Shown here in pieces: positions 4,101-51,953 of a stretch of 64,000 nucleotides of DNA; within the stretch, counting starts at the first letter, position 1; every line of letters starts with the position of its first letter. The position numbers and the translations under genes are program-made. Below the pieces are notes generated by a model. That model worked only from the letters and a program-made list of their open reading frames with translations, had not been told where the DNA came from and ran no database searches. The DNA comes from Candidatus Micrarchaeota archaeon (GTDB lineage: Archaea > Micrarchaeota > Micrarchaeia > Anstonellales > Anstonellaceae), in contig JAOAKE010000001.1 of NCBI GenBank assembly GCA_026413805.1, forward strand, positions 30,199-94,198, written 5' to 3'.

Positions 4101-5265
4101 AGCCGGGGGCTGCAGTGTTTGCATATGACGCCTCAGCGCCCCTTAATATTGCCTGGGCCTCCACAAGGCCCTCCCTTGCAGCAAGAAAGCCAGAATATAT
4201 CCCAGATGAAACAGGGGAAACCTCAATTCCTCCTTCCAGATTCCCTGCCTGCGCCGGGCTGTCGGGTATGAGGTGGAGCTTCTCGTCGCTTAGCAGGCTT
4301 ATTTTGGTTTCAAGGGAGGAGAGGGCGGCCTGGGCGGACAGGCGCGCAGATTGATATTCTCCGTTCATCTCCTTTTGTGCCTGCGAAAGGCTGGAATAAA
4401 TCGCAGCAAGCTGCATTATTGAAGATGAGTTTTGCCTGCCTGCAATTTTTTCAAGGTAGGATGAAAATCCGTAGCCTTCAAATGAGGGTAGGTCGGGCCT
4501 TGAAGACGCCCTGCTTGCGATTTTCCTGCCTTGCTGGGCTTGGAGGCAGATGGGCGAGGTGGGCGAAAGCTGTGACTTTGCCTCAAAGAATCGCCGCTGC
4601 GCCTTGCCAGTGTAATGGGGCTCGCCAGCGCCTGCGTCGGAGAGCCATTTCATTTTTTCATCTACCTTGTCTGCAAGGGCAAGGAGAGCCTCATTTGCCC
4701 TATCAAATGTGTCAAATGAGTTGGAATATGCCGACCAGAGGCTTTCATGGTAGGATAAGATGTAATTTGCTACCTCATATATGTTGAGAATCTCTGATAA
4801 TGCAGATGCCATTATTTTTGGAGTTGGTTCAAGAAGAGGCGCAGTAATTACCAGATAAGCAGGGCCTTTTTCTTGCAGCTCTTTGATTGAATTTTTTGCC
4901 TTTACTGATGAGACATGGGCTTTTAGGGAGGCATTCTTTGCCATCAAGAGCGATTCAGAGGCTTCCTTTAGCCTCTCAGAAGAGGCTAAAAGCTCGCTTC
5001 TTGCTTCAGGCGCCAGCATCCAGTTAAAGTAGTCTTTGTCTGCAAGGGTGAGCTGGGTTATTCCAAGCGACTGGGAAGCGTTGTCAAACTCAAATGAGTA
5101 AAAAGTCAGCCCCCAGAATTTGGCTATGAACGGGTTGCCTTGGACGTAATTGGGCTCGTTCCAAAAGCGAACAAGTGGCTCTACTTGTACGCAACTGCTT
5201 GCATATGAGGAGAAGGCAGGCTGAAGAAAAAGTAAAAATAGAAAGAGCGCCTCCCCACGCCTCAT
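1177..5265 (-). CDS. giant (1362 aa) secreted alpha-helical/coiled-coil surface protein with N-terminal signal peptide and C-terminal TM anchor plus basic tail; S-layer/stalk (tetrabrachion-like) candidate
   Basis: Long uninterrupted ORF; N-term MRRGEALFLFLLFLQPAFSSYASS signal; Ala/Ser/Leu/Glu/Gln-rich heptad-like sequence throughout; many N-x-S/T sequons; C-terminal hydrophobic segment ILGVISILFIAAAAYYFI followed by RKPRQEKKPPKKPIPK. Confidence 0.6.
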   Translation of the reverse strand: MRRGEALFLFLLFLQPAFSSYASSCVQVEPLVRFWNEPNYVQGNPFIAKFWGLTFYSFEFDNASQSLGITQLTLADKDYFNWMLAPEARSELLASSERLKEASESLLMAKNASLKAHVSSVKAKNSIKELQEKGPAYLVITAPLLEPTPKIMASALSEILNIYEVANYILSYHESLWSAYSNSFDTFDRANEALLALADKVDEKMKWLSDAGAGEPHYTGKAQRRFFEAKSQLSPTSPICLQAQQGRKIASRASSRPDLPSFEGYGFSSYLEKIAGRQNSSSIMQLAAIYSSLSQAQKEMNGEYQSARLSAQAALSSLETKISLLSDEKLHLIPDSPAQAGNLEGGIEVSPVSSGIYSGFLAAREGLVEAQAILRGAEASYANTAAPGYLADAISKAQSAEKKANYSLLSVALVLKNAQEAVSFQKELADTSIERVQQKISAYTPSSMEEAKAKNLSSSLLQRAIEMRSKAAYLPSLGEKFSAYAEATRLASHASAALQQSGLIGIKSEAQRQLSEFSGLVRNAKADGLDVSYEEWKLSQYMQLLSSTELPEVADAIIAALKDDEEALLERLSQAYSGLPAKYQKTKAIVENIRSESPGFLPEFDSLSSYFLGGSLFVKKAAGRLKEIDSQLDYYSEVAQKSVPKYLSAILSKNAWVSQLRSPAVLGGKSDYLATILTKNPSTLSYSAEVSFQAKTDLPIHSSDFSFGDRIVDAYPEMEKTTIVLPEVQAQQSYSFTFSKSDSPAQVNSVEEWCKEAYSSSAYLTRNIKFFASRDLERLLIEEKAPDGVAGGTARFAGRETKLSPKEGAGTGTVLAGEINSVRQGANSVEVSFVVPSPFKLSESERSYLEIGPGKRRVSYTLVASDFRADCEYAKVVLEEPFSSVSELSVQSISGARAERLRLDKGASKTTISFYFSPMRRHQSAEFLVSYTIEDLQSAVSESLANAELQVALYKKPQDASLLAQAKLLIGQNRLSEALSILSKINRNSADYLSFQAEQEAFAEENRTASYLLFEASSTQSKISAYGASERALKLSSLILKLNSSIVEAQQAASEGSLSKAASQLRRAQSEFREALSSLSWKAASDSSAAYAKARKEGAEAGVLSEAAQKISEANSLFAAGNYLGALSASSQAEQILSSFFEGGKEAEAQAAAELERIDAEFSRLGQETDQLLLKYSAQYASLSAQGKRQLPISPSAAQQRIDDAEKGLAAAKKQKPSIAGLRQANSSYQKLVSVSELVRKSLENLNSSAHSSLSVAKAALAEVKRKASPGEEKEVSQIEAEVKRAEEYLSLSLLADSILASERAIGASSAFLSKKGSGQDTSIILGVISILFIAAAAYYFIRKPRQEKKPPKKPIPKAGST

Positions 5266-5296
5266 AAGATTTTTTCATTGAAAGGGTTTATTATTT

Positions 5297-5932
5297 CTAT
5301 CTTTGCAGGGGGGCGAGGATGCGAACCAGCACCTTTCCGTTGGTTTTTTGAGCAACCATTGCTGAGAATGACTCTGGGTCCGCCTTGGTGTCTTCCAGAT
5401 AGTTGTAATGGTATGGGATGGCGATTTTTGGCATTATGGCAGCTGCAGCATCAGAGGCCTGCGAGGCGTCCATGGTGTATTTCCCGCCGATGGGAAGGAT
5501 TGCAACGTCACATTTGTAGTCTTTCATCTCTGGGATGAAGTCGGTGTCGCCTGCAACATAGATGCTTGCGCCTTTAAAGCGGACTATGAAGCCTGCTCCC
5601 TCGCCTTTAGGATGGTATGGCTTGTTGAGGTTATAGGCATGCACTGCCTCTACTTCCACGCCCATTATTTTTTCTCGCTCGCCAATCTGGATAGAGCGAA
5701 CAGGAAGCTTCACCTTGTGCCCAACGATGACGGTTTTGGGTGTGGTGATTGCAGGTGCAGAAACTGCGTGGTCAAAATGCCCATGGGTATAAAGAATAAT
5801 GTCGGCCTCCTTGGAGCCCTTGGGCACTATGAATGGGTCAATGTAGACTGAAACTCCGTCTCCTTCAAGATGGACGCTTGCATGGCCAAGAAGGGTGATC
5901 TTGACTCCAGAAAAGATGGTGCTGTTTGCCAT
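5297..5932 (-). CDS. metallo-beta-lactamase-fold metal-dependent hydrolase (UPF0173-like)
   Basis: HGHFDHA motif and overall MBL-fold pattern (LGHASVHLEGDGVSVYIDPF...); ATG confirmed. Confidence 0.75.
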   Translation of the reverse strand: MANSTIFSGVKITLLGHASVHLEGDGVSVYIDPFIVPKGSKEADIILYTHGHFDHAVSAPAITTPKTVIVGHKVKLPVRSIQIGEREKIMGVEVEAVHAYNLNKPYHPKGEGAGFIVRFKGASIYVAGDTDFIPEMKDYKCDVAILPIGGKYTMDASQASDAAAAIMPKIAIPYHYNYLEDTKADPESFSAMVAQKTNGKVLVRILAPLQR

Positions 5933-6043
5933 TCCTATCCCTAAGGCGCTCTACGAAGCCATATTTTTTATTGATGATGGGTAAATATTCAACCCTCAAA
6001 AAGGCAGTATGGAAAGTTGATGGCTTGTGTTTGTGGTGGTGCG

Positions 6044-14651: not shown

Positions 14652-15782
14652 CTATATCGTTTCCAAAAAATAGTCATGTATCTTGACAACATCCAGCTCC
14701 TCGCAGCGAGCGTTGCATGACAGGGCCTGCGCTATTGAGGGCTTTGTCCTGCCATTGTCCGAGGTTATGAATTCCTTGATGTATGCCCCTGCCTCTGCAA
14801 ATATGTGCAGCCTTAGTTTTCCGTCCTTTTCACATTGGGCTGAAACCGAAAATATCCTCCTTCTTCGCTCCAAGTCTGCCCTTCTTCCAAGGACTCGGTT
14901 AGGCGTCTGTTGGAAGAGAACTGCCCCTGAAAGCGAGCTTGCCTTTTCTGCGTCTTTTTGCCCGAGCGGGCGGTCAGCAGAAACCAATGCCGAGTATTCT
15001 TTGTCAAAATGAGAGTTGCAGACTGCATCAACAAAATGTGGGCCGACAATGCGCAGGCCAACTGCCCTTACGCTTCCCTTCTTTTCAATTGCCTTTTCAA
15101 GCTCAAGCAAGTCTGCCTTTCTCTTCTTTGGCTTTTTCAGCTCTAAAACAAACGGCCTTCCGCTGCCAAGCGCCCTTACATCCACGTCTTCCCGGCCGCT
15201 TGCATGCAGTATTGCATCTTCTGCCAAAAAAAGGCGCCTCGCCTCGCTTCCGATTTCTTCCTCAACAGAAGGGTAAGATTGGCCGCTTCCTGCGCAGCTT
15301 CGGCAGCCCTTTCCGCTGCACTTGGAGCATTGCCAGCGGCTCTGGCAGTGCCTTCGTGAAAGCTTCAGATACCTGCCAAAGACAAATAAAGGGGAAGGAA
15401 TTGCACGGGCGCTGCCCTTCTCAAAGTCAAGCTCAATGGCAAGGTCAGGGAACCTCTGCCTGTTCTGCCTCCCAGCCATCTTTGAAATTAACCCAGCCGC
15501 AGAAGAATTAAGGCTGTTTTTAATGGAGGTGAATTCTCCGGGCGCAAAATAGGTGGCGACCTCTTCCTCGCGAACCAGCACTTGGGGGGGAATGTGAGTT
15601 GAAACTGAAAAGGACTCCCACTCAAGCCCTTCTGAAAGCCCAACTGCCTTTGAGCAGAGCGCCTCAAGCTGCGAAAATATGCCTTGGCATAAGAAGCATC
15701 GGCTGCTTTCCCCTGAGATAGAAATTGCATGGGATTTTGGAAAGCGGCTTGCACACCATGAACAGAGGCAAAAACCTGCCAT
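14652..15782 (-). CDS. pus10: tRNA pseudouridine synthase Pus10
   Basis: N-terminal Zn-ribbon CSWC...CFLCQGIF, catalytic-Asp motif GREDVDVRALG matching Pus10 family. Confidence 0.75.
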   Translation of the reverse strand: MAGFCLCSWCASRFPKSHAISISGESSRCFLCQGIFSQLEALCSKAVGLSEGLEWESFSVSTHIPPQVLVREEEVATYFAPGEFTSIKNSLNSSAAGLISKMAGRQNRQRFPDLAIELDFEKGSARAIPSPLFVFGRYLKLSRRHCQSRWQCSKCSGKGCRSCAGSGQSYPSVEEEIGSEARRLFLAEDAILHASGREDVDVRALGSGRPFVLELKKPKKRKADLLELEKAIEKKGSVRAVGLRIVGPHFVDAVCNSHFDKEYSALVSADRPLGQKDAEKASSLSGAVLFQQTPNRVLGRRADLERRRRIFSVSAQCEKDGKLRLHIFAEAGAYIKEFITSDNGRTKPSIAQALSCNARCEELDVVKIHDYFLETI

Positions 15783-20847: not shown

Positions 20848-22155
20848 CCTCTTTGCAAACTCGCAAATGAATTCTTCCAGCCTTGAATAAGGGATGGTGG
20901 CGCCAGCTGCGATGTTGTGCCCGCCGCCTGCACCGCCTACTGCGCTGCTGCACTCAGAAACTACCTTTCCAAGGTTCAAACCCTCGCTGACAAGCTTCCT
21001 TGTGCCCCTTGTCGAAAGCTTTATGTTTCCGGACTCGTCCAGTGAAAGGGCAAGCACTGGCTTTTTTCTCTGGCCTGGGTAAAGCATGCCTGCGACTATC
21101 CCAATTATTGAGTCTGGGATTACTCCGCGGGCGTCTACCAAGATGAATTTCCCGAAGTCTTGGGCATGGCTGGCGGCAAATTCTATTCCCTCTTTGAGCC
21201 TCTTGCGATGCTCGGCGAGCAGTGCGCTTGCCTGCTGGTAAGCCCCTTCTTTTAGCAGGCAGACCTCCAGCCCTAGGTTGGCTTTGTTGTTTCTTCCACA
21301 GGCATTAAGCAAGGTTGCAAACTCAGATGCATCGCGAAGCTCGGTTCTTTTTGGCTGCTTAAGCAGGGTGAATACCTCGCCTGTCAGCCTTTTTGCAGCC
21401 TCAGGGGAAGCGCGGATTGCAAGAAGCTCGGCAAGCGCAGAAACCAGCCTTTTTTTCTCTTCAACTGCAAGGTCAGAGTATGTGCGCCAGTGCGGGCCTT
21501 CTTTTAGAGGGATTTCAAGGCTTGCAAGGAAATCTATGCATGCTTCTTCTTGGCCGCTGAGCCCTGGAAGGAACGGCTCGTCGGCATACAAAAGAAACTG
21601 CACGAGAGGGCGGCTGTGCCTGCCAAACAAAAGCAGGTCTTTTGAAACTGCCACCTCTCCTCTTTCCACTGCCTCGTCAAGCATTGCCCGGTTTAGGCTG
21701 CAAAATGGCTGCTGGATGTCTCCGACTGCGCCAACGACCCCCAAGTCAGCATGCACTCCGAAAACAAAATAGGCGCAGCCTGCTGCTGAAATCTCACTCC
21801 CCCCATCAAAGCCAAAGTGGTGGGGGTTGGCTTGCAGGTGGGAGGTGGTTGCGGGCTGGTGGTGGTCAATAATTACAACTTCGCCTTTAAGCTCATCTAC
21901 AATGGAAGTGCCACTTCCAAGGTCCGCAAAGATGATTTCTTTTTCACCTTTCAGGGAAGAAATAAGGCTTTGGTCCACCTTCCTTACATCTTTTGCCAAG
22001 TAGCGCTTGCCCTCACTTTCAAGCCAGGATGCAACTATTGCGCCTGCAGCAATGCCATCGCAATCATAGTGATGGATTACCAACGGCTGTGCCATTCTTT
22101 TGGCAGCTTCCCTCGCTTCTGCACAGCGCTCAAGAAATTTTTCGCGGTTTCCCAT
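20842..22155 (-). CDS. DHH-family phosphoesterase (archaeal RecJ/GAN-like nuclease)
   Basis: DHH motif region IHHYDCDGIAAGAI...IIDHH, DHHA1-like C-terminal GGGH motif (AVGGAGGGHNIAAGA). Confidence 0.7.
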   Translation of the reverse strand: MGNREKFLERCAEAREAAKRMAQPLVIHHYDCDGIAAGAIVASWLESEGKRYLAKDVRKVDQSLISSLKGEKEIIFADLGSGTSIVDELKGEVVIIDHHQPATTSHLQANPHHFGFDGGSEISAAGCAYFVFGVHADLGVVGAVGDIQQPFCSLNRAMLDEAVERGEVAVSKDLLLFGRHSRPLVQFLLYADEPFLPGLSGQEEACIDFLASLEIPLKEGPHWRTYSDLAVEEKKRLVSALAELLAIRASPEAAKRLTGEVFTLLKQPKRTELRDASEFATLLNACGRNNKANLGLEVCLLKEGAYQQASALLAEHRKRLKEGIEFAASHAQDFGKFILVDARGVIPDSIIGIVAGMLYPGQRKKPVLALSLDESGNIKLSTRGTRKLVSEGLNLGKVVSECSSAVGGAGGGHNIAAGATIPYSRLEEFICEFAKRL

Positions 22156-32017: not shown

Positions 32018-32548
32018 ATGAGGAAGGTAAGCGTACTTCGGCTGGGCCACCGAATTGGGAGGGATAGGCGAATAACAACCCATGTTTTTTTGGCAGCGCG
32101 AGCGCTCGGGGCGAATGATGGGATTTTGTGCGGAGAGAAAGATGAAAGGTTGTTAGAGAGCATAAGGAAAGTGAGTAAGTTGTGGGGCGGGGCGTTTGTA
32201 GTGCGCTATGAAGAAAATTGGAAAAAATGCCTCATGGAAGAAAAGAGGCAGGGGAAGGTGGTTGTGCACCTTACTATGTATGGAGAACCATTTCTTGAAA
32301 GGGTTTCTTTGTTGAAGGAAAAAGAGTTGGTGGTTGTTGTAGGCGCAGGAAAGGTCCCTCCAGAGATTTACCACATTGCAGACTTTAACCTTGCAGTGAC
32401 TCAGCAACCCCATTCAGAAGTGTCTGCACTTGCGCTTTTTCTTGACAGGTATTTTGAAGGGAAGGAACTTTCTTTGAATTTTGAAGGGATGATAAAAATA
32501 CTGCCAAATAAGTGCGGTAAAAGTGTTGTTCGTGTAAAAAATGTATGA
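32018..32548 (+). CDS. tRNA (cytidine56-2'-O)-methyltransferase aTrm56 (SPOUT)
   Basis: VLRLGHRIGRDRRITTHVFLAARALGA N-terminus characteristic of aTrm56. Confidence 0.8.
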   Translation: MRKVSVLRLGHRIGRDRRITTHVFLAARALGANDGILCGEKDERLLESIRKVSKLWGGAFVVRYEENWKKCLMEEKRQGKVVVHLTMYGEPFLERVSLLKEKELVVVVGAGKVPPEIYHIADFNLAVTQQPHSEVSALALFLDRYFEGKELSLNFEGMIKILPNKCGKSVVRVKNV

Positions 32549-33178: not shown

Positions 33179-33253
33179 AGCGGGATAGGGTAGCTTGGAG
33201 TGCCCGCTGGGCTCATAACCCAGAGATCAGTGGTTCAAATCCACTTCCCGCTA
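33179..33253 (+). tRNA. initiator tRNA-Met (anticodon CAU)
   Basis: Hand-folded cloverleaf: acceptor AGCGGGA/UCCCGCU with A1:U72, D-stem GGGU/GCCC, anticodon stem CUGGG/CCCAG with three G:C pairs next to loop CUCAUAA, T-arm AGUGG-UUCAAAU-CCACU, discriminator A; CCA not encoded. Confidence 0.8.
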
Positions 33254-34777: not shown

Positions 34778-34841
34778 CGTTCCACTTAGTTTTTGGGCAG
34801 TGCAATTGTTTTTATACCCTATTCCCTAAAAAATCGTCTGC

Positions 34842-34937
34842 GGGCCCATAGCTCAGCTTGGTAGAGCGGTGGACTCTTAATCCACGTGTCGGGGGTTCGA
34901 ATGCAGCCTCAGGCTGCCGGCGCTCCCTCTGGGCCCG
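34842..34937 (+). tRNA. tRNA-Lys (anticodon CUU) interrupted by a ~22-nt non-canonical intron in the T-loop (position ~59/60)
   Basis: Acceptor GGGCCCA/UGGGCCC, D-arm GCUC-AGCUUGGUA-GAGC, anticodon arm GUGGA-CUCUUAA-UCCAC, T-stem GGGGG...CCCUC; between UUCGAA and U-CCCUC lies UGCAGCCUCAGGCUGCCGGCGC containing hairpin GCAGCC-UCA-GGCUGC. Confidence 0.7.
34902..34923 (+). other. predicted tRNA intron (T-loop, non-canonical position) within tRNA-Lys
   Basis: Removal restores a canonical 7-nt T-loop UUCGAAU and 74-nt mature tRNA; exact splice junction ambiguous by 1 nt because of repeated U. Confidence 0.55.
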
Positions 34938-36423
34938 TTTCATTTGTTGTTTTGTTTGCTTTATCTTTGACTTGCTGGGATAAAAATTCCTCAATCAAAC
35001 CCTCCTCTGCCTTGGCCACACACTCATAATAGGCGCTTGTTTTGTTGAAGCCGCAAAATCCACTGTTGCATATGCATGATAGGTTTGCATAGCACTGCAA
35101 AATAGGGCCAGTTTCAACAGGGAAGGTGCGGGTGTCGTTTTTTGGCACGCAATATTGCCTTGCATTCCCCACAACTTTACAGTCACTGTCAGCGGCGCAG
35201 TTCTTCTGATCCATTAGCCTCTTGAGGCGTTCGGCTTCAGCAGCCACCTTCTTCTGGCCTTCAATAGAAGCATTAATACACACCTGCACCAAGCTGCTGT
35301 TTTTAAGCTTCTTGCACAGTTCGTATTCACCAGTGTTCTTCACAACCGAAATATAGCAGTCATCTTTCAAAATATCTAGCTTTTCGCAAAGAACCTTGTT
35401 GTTAGTCAGCTGCGCCACAACTAAAGTGCATTGCTCATAAATCGTGGCATTAGTTATTTTTTTGCAGACTTCCCACTTTTTCCTCTCAGCGCCCAAGGCA
35501 ACGTAACACTTGTCCCTCTCATATCCTTTTTGGATTTCGCATGTCTGCATAGAGACAAAGTCTTTCACAGAGCTTTGGTAATAGGCTGCAAAGGAGGAGG
35601 CACTAATGAGGCCCTCGGGCTTGGGCGGCAGTTGGGCCGCCTCGGTTTTTATTACAAAGTACTCTCTTTCATATCTCTGTGCCACGCCATTTAAGTAGTA
35701 GGTAGCAACAACCTTTGCTACCAACTTGCTTTCGCCATCAATCCAATAAGTTATCTTCCTGTTTGTTACAGACGTCACTTCTGGCGAATCAGGAGAAATG
35801 CCCGCTTCCATCAATTGCTTGACAGTAAGCTGCCTGTAGTCCAGAGAATATGATATTTTCGTAGCCTCAAAACCATTTATCTTCTCACTGCTGACCTCTT
35901 CAATAGTGATTGCCTTGTTGGTTATCAGAAAACGCATCTGGTCTTTCTGCGAAAGGTATAGCGCCCTGTCTGGGATGGCCTTTTTTATGTTGGAAAGCAC
36001 TCCCTTTACATCACTGTTGTTTTCTGCCATGGCGCAGCGCCGCTCGCCGCCATAAGCAAGGCACACCACATCAGAGCTTTCATTTTCCCCGAAAAACGCC
36101 TCCAAGTTTCCAAAGTTGCTTGTCAGGTTTACCCAACTTGACGTTCCGTTTTTCCCTATTTGGTAGCGGCTTTCTACCCCATCAGAAAGTTCTCGGTATT
36201 CTAAATAATAATCTTTAAGCGCAGCCCCTGCTTCATAGGTAGAAAGAAGCAGCTGCGCAGCAGGCGTGTCAATGGCAGGAACAGGCTCTCCCCGTGCGTT
36301 CAGCTGCGAATTCTCCTTTAAAAAATAGGCGGCTCCTGCTATCAGCAAAATTACCACTACCCCCAAGAGCAACAAAACGCGGCTGTCTATGCCAAGCTGC
36401 TTTTTTTCCTTGTCCTGGTTCAT
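34909..36423 (-). CDS. membrane-anchored extracellular protein with C-terminal Cys-pair repeats (hypothetical)
   Basis: N-terminal TM LLLLGVVVILLIAGAAYFL after short cytoplasmic tail; C-terminal region has 4+ copies of C-x(9-12)-C-[YI] repeat; ATG 36423 (track TTG 36441); 3' end overlaps tRNA-Lys on opposite strand. Confidence 0.5.
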   Translation of the reverse strand: MNQDKEKKQLGIDSRVLLLLGVVVILLIAGAAYFLKENSQLNARGEPVPAIDTPAAQLLLSTYEAGAALKDYYLEYRELSDGVESRYQIGKNGTSSWVNLTSNFGNLEAFFGENESSDVVCLAYGGERRCAMAENNSDVKGVLSNIKKAIPDRALYLSQKDQMRFLITNKAITIEEVSSEKINGFEATKISYSLDYRQLTVKQLMEAGISPDSPEVTSVTNRKITYWIDGESKLVAKVVATYYLNGVAQRYEREYFVIKTEAAQLPPKPEGLISASSFAAYYQSSVKDFVSMQTCEIQKGYERDKCYVALGAERKKWEVCKKITNATIYEQCTLVVAQLTNNKVLCEKLDILKDDCYISVVKNTGEYELCKKLKNSSLVQVCINASIEGQKKVAAEAERLKRLMDQKNCAADSDCKVVGNARQYCVPKNDTRTFPVETGPILQCYANLSCICNSGFCGFNKTSAYYECVAKAEEGLIEEFLSQQVKDKANKTTNETGPEGAPAA

Positions 36424-36511
36424 TGCTCTCCCTCCAGCCAAAACGCTAAATTCTTCTGAAAAGGTTATAATCTTTCTCTATTTTGTTTGGCGCGAGCAGC
36501 ACCTAATCCGC

Positions 36512-39383: not shown

Positions 39384-39884
39384 ATGCTTGTTGAATCTAA
39401 GAAGAAAAAAGGGTTTTTTGAGGAAACGAACAATGAGCTTGCCTCTCTTTTTGCCGAGGCTGGCGCAGGGTTTTCGTTCCAAAAGCAGTTCCTTTTCCAC
39501 CCACTGGAAGCCGCCTATTTTGTTAAAATCGGAAAGGCAGCTTTCAAGGATTTCAAGACTTTTGAAAGCTTCCTGTCGCGCTGGAGGCAGAAAGACCCGT
39601 CATTTCCCTTTGCATTTTCAGTCTATTTTGCCATCCGCCAGACAGGAAGGCTCATCTATCCATACATGAAAAAAACGAACTTCTTTCGCGTCTATTCCCC
39701 CGGAGTTGGCAGGCAGGATTCCCGTCCTTCCCAACTGGTTTGCCTCTTGCCAGGGAAGTTTCCATCGCAAAAAACACTTGAGAACGAGGTAAGAGTTGCA
39801 CACCTTGCAAGGCTGGATTTGATAGTTGCATGCGGAACCCCGCAAAACATAAGGTTTTACAAAATCTCCAGCTTCAATTTCTAG
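39384..39884 (+). CDS. tRNA-splicing endonuclease family protein lacking catalytic His/Lys (putative structural/beta-type subunit)
   Basis: C-terminal block NFFRVYSPG...QLVCLL...RVAHLARLDLIVACG aligns with EndA catalytic-domain blocks GADFRLY / HS.YLV / RVAHSVRKKLLIA but His and Lys positions are substituted; N-terminal EAAYFVKIGK resembles EndA N-domain; ATG with AGGTAG RBS. Confidence 0.55.
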   Translation: MLVESKKKKGFFEETNNELASLFAEAGAGFSFQKQFLFHPLEAAYFVKIGKAAFKDFKTFESFLSRWRQKDPSFPFAFSVYFAIRQTGRLIYPYMKKTNFFRVYSPGVGRQDSRPSQLVCLLPGKFPSQKTLENEVRVAHLARLDLIVACGTPQNIRFYKISSFNF

Positions 39885-49019: not shown

Positions 49020-49613
49020 CTACAGCCCCCTCAGCTTCTCATCCATGAATCTCTTGATGTCATCCCCAACCAGCCAGGTTTGGACTCCTGCCCTGCTGCC
49101 TGCCAGCCTGTCCTCTTCATTGTCGCCTATAAAGATGGCTTGCCCCGGAGTTATTCTCAGCCTTTCGCAAGCAATTTTAAGCATGGTCGGGTCTGGCTTT
49201 GGGGGCGCATCAGCGCTTGTTATGACAGCTGAAAAATAATGCCTGATGCCGAGCCTCTCCAAAACCATGTTGGCGCTTGCCCTTCTATTGGTTGCAACTG
49301 CCAGCAGGTATCTTTTAGAAAGAGAAGGGACAGCCTCCACCACAGGAAGGGGGGAAATGAGGTGCAGGTTTTCGGCAGTGAGCTGTGAAAGGCGGGCCAA
49401 CATCTGCCTAAGCAGGGCACCGTTTCCCTTTAACTCTGGGGCAAGGGCGAGCAGAACTGTTTCTGCGCTGTGCGCAGACGACATCTTTTCTATCTTTTCG
49501 TCAGGGACTACAAAGCCAAACTCCCTCATAAGCTCGCGTGTATTGTGGACCACTGCCCTGCGCGAGTCAGCAAGCACCCCATCAATGTCAAATATTATCG
49601 CCTTTATTGCCAT
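49020..49613 (-). CDS. HAD-superfamily hydrolase (phosphoglycolate/beta-phosphoglucomutase-like subfamily IA)
   Basis: Motif I IFDIDGVLADS, motif III/IV GDNEEDRLAG. Confidence 0.75.
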   Translation of the reverse strand: MAIKAIIFDIDGVLADSRRAVVHNTRELMREFGFVVPDEKIEKMSSAHSAETVLLALAPELKGNGALLRQMLARLSQLTAENLHLISPLPVVEAVPSLSKRYLLAVATNRRASANMVLERLGIRHYFSAVITSADAPPKPDPTMLKIACERLRITPGQAIFIGDNEEDRLAGSRAGVQTWLVGDDIKRFMDEKLRGL

Positions 49614-50650
49614 TCAATCAGCCTTTTCTGTTCAGCCTCATAGTCCCTGCACAAAAGCACCACCCTTGAGGCAGGATGCCTCTCGCTTACAAGATAGCCG
49701 GTCTTTTCTGCAAGCCAGGCAGCAACCTTTTCTATTTCCTCCATTTTTAGCATGCTGTCCAATGATAGGCCCCTGCCTTGCATTCTTGCGCCACCTACAA
49801 AAACCATGCTTTTTACCTCCACATATTGCGGCCGGGCAAGCCCGATCTGCTTTGCATAGCCTTGCAGGTTGGCATCATTTGCCCCTCGCGCAAGAGTCAT
49901 GCGCAGCACAGTCCTGGTTTTCTTCCCAAGCGCAGGCATGAGCCGCAGCATCTTGAGGTATTTTTCCCACAACAAAGGCGAGGCAGGCCTTATTGCTTTT
50001 CTATAAGTCTCCTCGTCGCTTGCCACCATTGAAACGTAGAATTGTGTCGGGAAAGTTTCCCATTTCTCTACCCTCTCCGGAAATGTTCCATTCGTCACCA
50101 AGAACGTTGTCATGTTCCGCCTGTGGAATTCCCTAACAAGCCCTTCCAGATAGGGATACATCATCGGCTCACCTGTAAGGGAAATCGCAGCGTGCTTGGG
50201 ATTCATGGCCTGCTGGTACAGTTCCTTTGGCACCCCTCGGCTTCCCCCAAAGCCTGAGATAATCTCCTTTTGCGCTTTAATAAGCCCTTCAGCAATTTCC
50301 TCGGGGCTGTCCCACCTAAATTGCCCATCGGGAATTTCGGCAAACTGCACTTTTCTGTCAGGTATGAACCTCCAGCAGAAAACGCATGCATGGTTGCAAA
50401 ACAAAAGGGAAGGGGTGCATTGGAGGCATCGGTGCGAGGCAATCCCATAAAACTTGTTTTTGTAGCACCCTGCCCTCCTTTTTAGCATCTCCCCTGCCCA
50501 TTTGCACAGCTTGGCAGCAGAGTGCTCTCCTGCAAGGTGGTACTTCTGCCTGATGAGAAGCTTTAGCAGACTGTCGGGGATGGACTTGTTTAAAGCCCTG
50601 ACCCTCGCATAGTACTTGCTCTCCTCCAAATCCTTTCTGCGGCGCGCCAT
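49604..50650 (-). CDS. taw1: radical-SAM tRNA 4-demethylwyosine synthase (TYW1/Taw1)
   Basis: Radical SAM cluster CNHACVFCW plus upstream Cys cluster, TYW1-like length and pattern. Confidence 0.8.
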   Translation of the reverse strand: MARRRKDLEESKYYARVRALNKSIPDSLLKLLIRQKYHLAGEHSAAKLCKWAGEMLKRRAGCYKNKFYGIASHRCLQCTPSLLFCNHACVFCWRFIPDRKVQFAEIPDGQFRWDSPEEIAEGLIKAQKEIISGFGGSRGVPKELYQQAMNPKHAAISLTGEPMMYPYLEGLVREFHRRNMTTFLVTNGTFPERVEKWETFPTQFYVSMVASDEETYRKAIRPASPLLWEKYLKMLRLMPALGKKTRTVLRMTLARGANDANLQGYAKQIGLARPQYVEVKSMVFVGGARMQGRGLSLDSMLKMEEIEKVAAWLAEKTGYLVSERHPASRVVLLCRDYEAEQKRLIEWQ

Positions 50651-50765
50651 CGCATGTTCTTCTCATGCTCTCGTTATAAAAACCCTTACATTTGAACAGG
50701 ATAGGCCAAGACTGATGCTTTCTCAGGCAATTTTTGGAAGGTTTCGCCTGCGAAGGGGTGATAAA

Positions 50766-51953
50766 ATGGCAGTAAAAATAGAGTTTGACCCAAAAAAGAA
50801 AGAGCTGTTCGTCTCGGAGCCCGAGTCAGTTTCCTCTCTTGTAAATGGGCATTATGGGCATATGAAAAAGGGCACAATTTACCTATTCCCAGAGGAGGCG
50901 CTTTACCTGATGGACATACGCAATGCCAAGTGCTATGACCCAGCCTTTAACGAATACAAGTTCAACCAAGTCGCCTCTCATTTTCAAAGCAAAAAGCAGA
51001 TGGCCCGCTATTTTACTTACAAAGACTGGCGAGACCGCGGCTTAATTGCACGGCAAGTCTCTGAGATTTGCGAAAAATATGGCAGGAGCAATGTGAAAAA
51101 ATACCCCAGCGGAAGGCTGCAGCTTGACCGCTATGCGCTGCAGGGCAGGTTTTACCCAGATGACCTTTGGACGATAATTGATGACGAAGCTGTTGGAAAA
51201 GAGCTCTATGAGCGCTACTGGTTTGGCCAATTTGGCTCTTACAAGGCAGAGCAGCGTGGCAAGCTCTCCAAGCTGGACATATACGAAACCCTATTTTTAA
51301 TCAGGCACGCCAACCTCCACATAGAAAATGCGACTGAAGAGCAGGTCATAAAGGCAGCAAAGAGGCAGCACAAGTATTTCCTCAACCTATACGATGTTTA
51401 TGAAGACTGGCGGCTCAATGGGTTTGTGCTCAAAACAGGCTTCAAGTTCGGCACCCATTTCCGGCTATACATGCCTGGTGCCTCCCCTGTAAGGCAGGGA
51501 GACGAATGGATACACTCCAAGCACGTAATACACTGCTTTCCAAGGCAAAGCAAGCTGCTAATTTCAGAGTGGGCACGGGCAATTCGCGTTGCCCATTCTG
51601 TAAAAAAGACCTTTGTCCTTGCCATACCCGGCGAAAAAAAGGCAAAGAAGAAGAAAAAAGAGCAGCAGGAGCTTTTCACTAGCCTTGACTTTCTTCTCTA
51701 CCATCGTGCGCAAGGGGGGATAGAAAACCCCAAGACCGGAAAGCCAAAATACCTGATGTTTTCGCTCTCCGAAGAGGAGTATATCGGAGGTGAAGAGCTT
51801 GCAGATGCCATCGAGCAGTGCAAACGGATAGGGCTTGAGCTTCTGCTTGCAATATGCGACCGCGAAACCTCTGTAACCTATTATCTTGTCAAAAGGATTG
51901 AAGTGCCCGGCTCAAAATACGAGTATTACGAAATTGAGTGGGTGCAGCCGTAA
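50766..51953 (+). CDS. endA: tRNA-splicing endonuclease, multi-unit fused form (N-terminal pseudo-unit + catalytic unit + degenerate C-terminal unit)
   Basis: Catalytic unit KTGFKFGTHFRLY / HSKHVIHCF / RVAHSVKKTFVLAI retains Tyr-His-Lys triad; N-terminal region YFTYKDWRDRGLIARQ and C-terminal RIGLELLLAICDRETSVTYYLVKRI resemble additional EndA units; ATG 50766 confirmed. Confidence 0.8.
   Translation: MAVKIEFDPKKKELFVSEPESVSSLVNGHYGHMKKGTIYLFPEEALYLMDIRNAKCYDPAFNEYKFNQVASHFQSKKQMARYFTYKDWRDRGLIARQVSEICEKYGRSNVKKYPSGRLQLDRYALQGRFYPDDLWTIIDDEAVGKELYERYWFGQFGSYKAEQRGKLSKLDIYETLFLIRHANLHIENATEEQVIKAAKRQHKYFLNLYDVYEDWRLNGFVLKTGFKFGTHFRLYMPGASPVRQGDEWIHSKHVIHCFPRQSKLLISEWARAIRVAHSVKKTFVLAIPGEKKAKKKKKEQQELFTSLDFLLYHRAQGGIENPKTGKPKYLMFSLSEEEYIGGEELADAIEQCKRIGLELLLAICDRETSVTYYLVKRIEVPGSKYEYYEIEWVQP

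Follow-up and report, generated by a model that had tools for sequence, protein, structure and literature searches.

Non-canonical tRNA introns have a close precedent within the Micrarchaeota, where insertions between T-loop positions 59 and 60, their relaxed splice-site motifs and their cleavage by an ε2-type endonuclease are already published (PMC3239211). For example, the ε2 enzyme of ARMAN-2 cuts in vitro a pre-tRNA-Cys that carries a 13-nt intron at 59/60 in a relaxed hBH motif (Fujishima et al. 2011, PMC3239211). Cleavage of both strict and relaxed motifs by the homodimer was demonstrated for the ARMAN-2 protein only (PMC3239211). Lysine K161, within the ARMAN-specific loop (ASL), is essential for cutting both kinds of motif, and its role and those of Y236, H251 and K282 were described in the same study (PMC3488258). 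The intron positions of ARMAN-2 also overlap the major insertion sites of Crenarchaeota and Thermoproteales (PMC3239211).

Here we describe a tRNA gene in a 64,000-nucleotide stretch of DNA (the window) from an uncultured Candidatus Micrarchaeota archaeon (DPANN). The segment at 34842-34937 on the forward strand is very probably a functional, promoter-driven tRNA-Lys(CUU) gene with a 22-nt protein-spliced intron between T-loop positions 59 and 60. The locus has the features of a non-canonical protein-spliced intron: removal of the insert restores the cloverleaf, the junction forms a relaxed bulge-helix-bulge (BHB), the exons are conserved and the intron variable, and an ε2 endonuclease is encoded. 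The intron thus belongs to a kind already described for Micrarchaeota and calls for no new mechanism.

A disrupted tRNA-Lys(CUU) gene

The 96-nt pre-tRNA-Lys(CUU) consists of the 5′ exon GGGCCCATAGCTCAGCTTGGTAGAGCGGTGGACTCTTAATCCACGTGTCGGGGGTTCGAA, the insert TGCAGCCTCAGGCTGCCGGCGC and the 3′ exon TCCCTCTGGGCCCG, and dropping 34902-34923 leaves a mature form of 74 nt (Table 1). The anticodon CTT occupies 34876-34878, and no CCA is encoded in the gene.

A preliminary description of this DNA had proposed that the tRNA folds cleanly only without ~22 nt that themselves contain a 6-bp hairpin, and both statements hold. ARAGORN found no uninterrupted tRNA at the raw locus, returning no call with or without intron mode or at lowered thresholds. 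Applied to the whole window at lowered thresholds, it produced only noise, with introns of up to 2.7 kb, and its sole tRNA in the raw window is the tRNA-Met of Table 1. The Rfam tRNA model matched the raw locus only in part (34842-34899; 26.1 bits, below the 29-bit threshold) and treated the T-arm as missing. Once the 22 nt were deleted, ARAGORN called a tRNA-Lys(ctt) with a 7-bp acceptor, a 4-bp D-stem, a 5-bp anticodon stem and a 5-bp T-stem that includes one G·U pair. The hairpin reads GCAGCC-TCA-GGCTGC, and it is present in the minimum-energy structure and in all 15 of the lowest-energy suboptimal structures printed. That minimum, computed by RNAfold for the unspliced 96-mer, is a cloverleaf whose T-stem carries the stacked hairpin of the insert (-46.5 kcal/mol; z = -2.3 relative to shuffled sequences).

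Table 1. Features of the tRNA-Lys(CUU) locus and of related genes in the window
Feature	Position	Strand	Remarks
Pus10	14652-15782	-	Pseudouridine 54/55
aTrm56	32018-32548	+	2′-O-methylation of C56
tRNA-Met(CAT), uninterrupted	33179-33253	+	61.4 bits in Rfam
TATA-like box TTTTTATA	34809-34816	+	Centre ~29 nt upstream of tRNA position 1
5′ exon of tRNA-Lys(CUU), positions 1-59	34842-34901 (60 nt)	+	ARAGORN on spliced sequence, Rfam partial match; acceptor 5′ strand, D-arm, anticodon arm, variable loop, T-stem 5′ strand (34891-34895), U54-A59
Exon strand of central helix H, U55-C56-G57	34897-34899	+	Hand-drawn; register from relatives
5′ bulge, 3 nt	34900-34902	+	A58-A59 (34900-34901) and intron U1 (34902); holds the 5′ splice site
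Intron UGCAGCCUCAGGCUGCCGGCGC, at 59/60	34902-34923 (22 nt)	+	Exactly absent in L147/L148 and L149
Intron hairpin, outer helix h′	34903-34917	+	6 bp, GCAGCC/GGCUGC, loop UCA
Intron 3′ segment CGGCGC	34918-34923	+	C17-G18-G19 pair with G57-C56-U55
3′ exon	34924-34937 (14 nt)	+	U60; T-stem 3′ strand CCCUC (34925-34929); acceptor 3′ strand UGGGCCC (34930-34936); discriminator G73 (34937)
510-aa ORF, antisense	34909-36441	-	Overlaps the last 29 nt of the tRNA-Lys gene (34909-34937)
Stand-alone 166-aa tRNA splicing endonuclease paralogue	39384-39884	+	Pfam tRNA_int_endo only 17.6 bits
Radical-SAM/wyosine-formation protein (Taw1-like)	49604-50650	-	Immediately upstream of the ε2 gene, divergent
ε2-type three-unit tRNA splicing endonuclease	50766-51953	+	395 aa from the ATG at 50766; predicted to remove the intron

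Upstream of the gene, the TTTTTATA box fits an archaeal promoter and would be expected to act as one. The motif TTTTATA(T/C)(C/T)C lies at an equal upstream distance in five relatives (L013, L146, L147, L149 and L150; Table 2). The neighbouring tRNA-Met has the pattern of an archaeal initiator tRNA, with A1:U72 paired and the base of its anticodon stem made up of three G-C pairs.

The antisense 510-aa ORF terminates inside the intron, its stop TGA being the complement of the hairpin loop UCA. In seven relatives, 8-35 nt separate the end of the homologous gene from the tRNA. The overlap is therefore peculiar to this genome, and may reflect a short C-terminal extension or a sequence error.

Other origins for the insert were considered and rejected. 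It is not a copy of a repeated element, since its sequence is unique within the window when up to 3 mismatches are allowed. Group I and group II introns have ribozyme cores hundreds of nucleotides long and match RNA families. A self-splicing intron of either group is ruled out here by the 22-nt length and by the lack of any Rfam match at the locus beyond the partial tRNA. A weak Rfam match to alpha_tmRNA, a member of the tRNA clan, at 21247-21451 raised the possibility of a second disrupted tRNA, and was dismissed as chance (12 bits, no tRNA-like features).

The chief value of these observations lies in annotation. ARAGORN, and Rfam at its threshold, both miss the gene, and the genome would therefore appear to be without tRNA-Lys(CUU). 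Prediction that allows for introns is needed for DPANN genomes in which many tRNA genes are disrupted.

Orthologous genes and the splice-site motif

Nine orthologous, syntenic genes were compared: that of the window and those of eight further genomes, with L147/L148 and L150/L151 each counted as one entry (Table 2). The conserved gene order (PPase, PIN, Trm56, TFE, tRNA-Met, PRC, GGPP synthase, tRNA-Lys, a ~500-aa protein, GTPase, RFC, EndA-like) is kept over >10 kb to either side of the gene in independent assemblies drawn from NCBI, JGI, ENA and Logan.

Table 2. Introns in the orthologous tRNA-Lys(CUU) genes
Genome	T-loop insert	37/38 intron	Gene
Window	22 nt	none	
L013	14 nt	none	
L142	40 nt	37 nt	4485-4635
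L146	40 nt	58 nt	5255-5426
L143	72 nt	none	
L150/L151	73 nt	none	
L141	116 nt	40 nt	3-232
L147/L148	none	19 nt	5864-5956 (L147)
L149	none	35 nt	5763-5871

The mature tRNA is 74 nt in all nine genes, with 97% column identity, and the window's 5′ exon is 93-100% identical to those of its orthologues. The T-loop inserts are unalignable (33% column identity) and range from 0 to 116 nt. Conserved exons around such an insert mark it as an intron and not as part of an exon. In every orthologue, all 21 stem pairs are of standard type, and pairing falls to 24-51% when the stem partners are slid by one to three columns. Three pairs covary: 27:43 (G-C/A-U), 28:42 (U-A/C-G) and 50:64 (G·U/A-U/U-A), the last of which spans the T-loop insert. 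The exons of L013 are 100% identical to those of the window, beside flanking proteins that are 34-84% identical (55-63% for GGPP synthase, GTPase, RFC and the EndA-like protein). The flanks of the insert, UUCGAA|U, are invariant, and the lineages that lack it (L147/L148 and L149) read GGGTTCGAATCCCAC, which fixes the mature sequence exactly. Near-identical mature tRNAs, compensatory changes and the exact absence of the insert in two lineages amount to more than chance, and the exons are under selection.

Comparison also settles the junction. A U stands at both junctions of the window gene, so that 59/60 and 60/61 are equally possible from this gene alone; per gene, the ambiguity covers one to three positions. 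The preliminary placement at ~59/60 was confirmed, since no other junction suits all seven T-loop inserts, that of the window and six others.

In the archaeal splicing motif, two 3-nt bulges lie on opposite strands of a 4-bp helix, and each is cut on the 3′ side of its second nucleotide. A motif was drawn by hand on this geometry and then scored for energy. Its outer parts are the T-stem (G49-G53/C61-C65) and the intron hairpin (G2-C7/G11-C16, loop UCA). Between them, the central helix has three of its four pairs (U55·G19, C56-G18 and G57-C17), and C20 lies opposite U54 as a mismatch. The 3′ splice-site loop comprises G21-C22 and U60 (34924) and adjoins the T-stem; the U54·C20 mismatch in the place of the fourth central pair puts the 3′ site in a 1x4 internal loop. 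The strict hBHBh′ form, with two 3-nt bulges and exactly 4 bp between them, is thus absent, and the junction is a relaxed bulge-helix-bulge. The preliminary description had failed to draw a strict motif by eye, in agreement with this result, and had left the splice sites to a search of folded junctions; the relaxed form drawn here has a register common to all the relatives, though it is not the minimum-energy structure.

At -41.8 kcal/mol, the drawn motif lies 4.7 kcal/mol above the predicted minimum of -46.5 kcal/mol. In that alternative, C56-G57 pair with G21-C20, two to three nucleotides further 3′, and a 3x3 internal loop results. By arithmetic, one random 4-mer has a ~22% chance of forming at least three pairs, so the motif in the window gene alone is weak evidence. 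It is the comparison with the T-loop introns of the relatives that favours the drawn register. Counted from the end of the intron, G57 pairs with position n-5 and C56 with n-4 in seven of seven T-loop introns, and all four central pairs are present in four of the seven (L013, L141, L143 and L150). For L141 and L143, a strict motif costs no more than 0.7 kcal/mol over the minimum; these are the only genes for which constrained-folding energies were used, as the constraints were not enforced for short introns. As a positive control, the rule of cutting after the second bulge nucleotide, with the 4-nt helix upstream, recovers four of four central pairs in four of five canonical 37/38 introns of the relatives. 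The window motif is therefore relaxed but real.

When a genome collection was scanned for tRNA-Lys(CUU) genes interrupted in the T-loop, L013 was the one true match; 19 bacterial matches were due to chance. A metagenome scan with the pattern GGGGGTTCGAA N{0,30} TCCCTCTGGGCCC revealed no new relative among the matches listed, which were tRNAs of unrelated organisms, lacking introns and carrying other anticodons, mostly CAT.

Canonical introns of 19-58 nt at 37/38 occur in the orthologues L141, L142, L146, L147 and L149, and the window gene has none. Every combination of the 59/60 and 37/38 introns except 'none' is represented among the nine genes, and three of four combinations within one clade imply repeated intron gain or loss. 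A single gene therefore offers a natural series of T-loop introns of 0, 14, 22, 40, 72, 73 and 116 nt, with or without a canonical intron, which can be used to study gain, loss and turnover as well as the minimal substrate of an ε2 endonuclease.

The long T-loop introns of L141 (104-219) and L150 (3454-3526) have a common core, UCAGCCCAAGGGG ... CCCUUAGUCCGA.ACC.CCC.AACCCC, with stable predicted helices. A search of Rfam with this core gave no family at a meaningful score. The core could be a structured, intron-derived RNA.

Splicing endonuclease, its paralogue and the predicted pathway

An intron at this site had been expected to require a splicing endonuclease of relaxed specificity, and an enzyme of a suitable, broad-specificity type is indeed encoded 16 kb downstream of the tRNA-Lys gene. 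The most probable start codon of the ORF at 50616-51953 is the ATG at 50766, with GGGGTGAT ahead of it. Pfam tRNA_int_endo scores 97 bits on the product, and the N-terminal domain is recognised as well. Against the ARMAN-2 EndA structure (PDB 4FZ2), phmmer aligned ORF residues 54-445 to chain residues 4-387 in a single alignment (E 1.3e-132), and the window protein has the three units, αN-α-βC, in one chain. The catalytic triad Y236/H251/K282 of 4FZ2 and its K161, within GSYKAEQR, are identical in the window ORF (Y285, H300, K331 and K210 in the numbering of the TTG-start ORF). This ε2-type EndA is accordingly the candidate for removing the tRNA-Lys intron. The divergent Taw1-like gene beside it is another tRNA-maturation gene.

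Closer to the tRNA, the window encodes a stand-alone 166-aa EndA-like paralogue whose best PDB match is 5X89, the EndA of M. kandleri. Its sequence shares 100% identity with an NCBI protein of a "Candidatus Micrarchaeota archaeon" metagenome-assembled genome. Of 81 homologues, 79 have the catalytic Tyr, 80 have Arg at the His position and 80 have Leu at the Lys position; those homologues that are named have Micrarchaeota-type names throughout. In each of the relatives examined, the gene follows RFC; it occurs alongside the ε2 enzyme. The protein could be an undescribed structural subunit that alters the architecture or the specificity of the splicing enzyme. Neither this paralogue nor a clade-wide fixed 59/60 intron with turnover is described in the ARMAN-2 papers (PMC3239211, PMC3488258). 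That the 59/60 intron is old and fixed, the L141/L150 core a functional RNA and the 166-aa paralogue a structural subunit, all at once, is in our judgement unlikely.

In the pathway that we infer, the T-loop of the precursor would be unable to form, and pairing of intron C17-G18-G19 with G57-C56-U55 would create the short central helix in its place. This helix would be flanked by the A58-A59|U bulge and the 6-bp hairpin and, on the opposite side, by the G-C|U60 loop, the U54·C mismatch and the T-stem. The ε2 dimer would cut at 34901|34902 and 34923|34924, releasing fragments of 60, 22 and 14 nt, and an RtcB-type ligase would join the exons (...GGTTCGAA linked to TCCCTCTGGGCCCG) into a normal 74-nt tRNA. 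The window ORFs that were scanned included no RtcB ligase. Pus10 and aTrm56, which the window also encodes, would probably modify the T-loop after splicing: their targets are nucleotides within or next to the precursor's central helix, so that modification of the tRNA-Lys T-loop probably waits for the intron to be removed. Transcription, cleavage, ligation and later modification are all predicted from sequence, as are the occurrence of splicing itself and its order relative to modification.

Alternative readings and relation to known systems

Failure of tRNA finders on the raw sequence, the lack of a strict bulge-helix-bulge and the antisense ORF that overlaps the gene's 3′ end would also suit a decaying pseudogene, a tRNA-Lys inactivated by the 22-nt T-loop insertion and yielding no functional tRNA. 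Decay, however, is hard to reconcile with exons 100% identical to those of L013 when neighbouring proteins share only 34-84% identity, with the retention of all 21 stem pairs in all orthologues through compensatory changes, with a conserved promoter box, with the persistence of a same-site insert in seven lineages and with a suitable endonuclease encoded nearby; we regard it as very improbable. It is hardly credible, too, that the 22 nt are retained in a mature tRNA with an enlarged T-loop and an extra hairpin, even though the minimum-energy structure keeps the cloverleaf stems and merely adds the hairpin on top of the T-stem. Conservation would be expected of a structural element that is retained, but this insert varies from 0 to 116 nt and cannot be aligned between invariant UUCGAA|U flanks. 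Pairing of C56 and G57 in the precursor, moreover, precludes the standard interaction between the T-loop and the D-loop. In addition, the ε2 enzyme removes in vitro an insert that is equivalent to this one at 59/60 (PMC3239211).

The sequence comes from a metagenome-assembled genome, and tRNA 3′ halves are common integration sites, two points that could be taken to favour an artefact of assembly or binning, or a scar left by a mobile element integrated at the tRNA 3′ half. Independent assemblies nevertheless share the gene order for >10 kb on both sides, no more than 22 nt separates the two parts of the tRNA, no tRNA fragment is repeated, and the intron sequence is unique in the window. Two scans of viral contigs for the 3′ half of tRNA-Lys found none, which counts against an integration scar. 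The probability of either origin is close to negligible, and a functional gene with a protein-spliced intron is the reading that we adopt.

As a predicted protein-spliced intron, the tRNA-Lys insert most resembles the 59/60 intron of ARMAN-2 (PMC3239211), with which it shares the phylum, the T-loop site, a short length, a relaxed motif and an ε2 EndA. It differs from that case in residing in tRNA-Lys(CUU) and in a different uncultured lineage. The intron's own 6-bp hairpin leaves the 5′ bulge flanked by helices on both sides, and the motif is therefore closer to HBh′ than to the hBH of ARMAN-2. Beyond the ARMAN-2 case, the 59/60 position is here conserved across a clade while intron length turns over between 0 and 116 nt.

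The non-canonical introns of Crenarchaeota and Thermoproteales are likewise located outside 37/38, often have relaxed motifs and co-occur with a broad-specificity endonuclease. Their enzyme is an (αβ)2 EndA with a Crenarchaea-specific loop, whereas that of the window is a single-chain, three-unit ε2 protein with the ASL. With canonical 37/38 introns and their strict hBHBh′ motif, the tRNA-Lys intron would share cleavage chemistry and geometry, but it lies in the T-loop rather than in the anticodon loop, and its central helix has three of four pairs. Given this imperfect central helix, α4 or α′2 enzymes, which need a strict motif, are not expected to cut the window intron.
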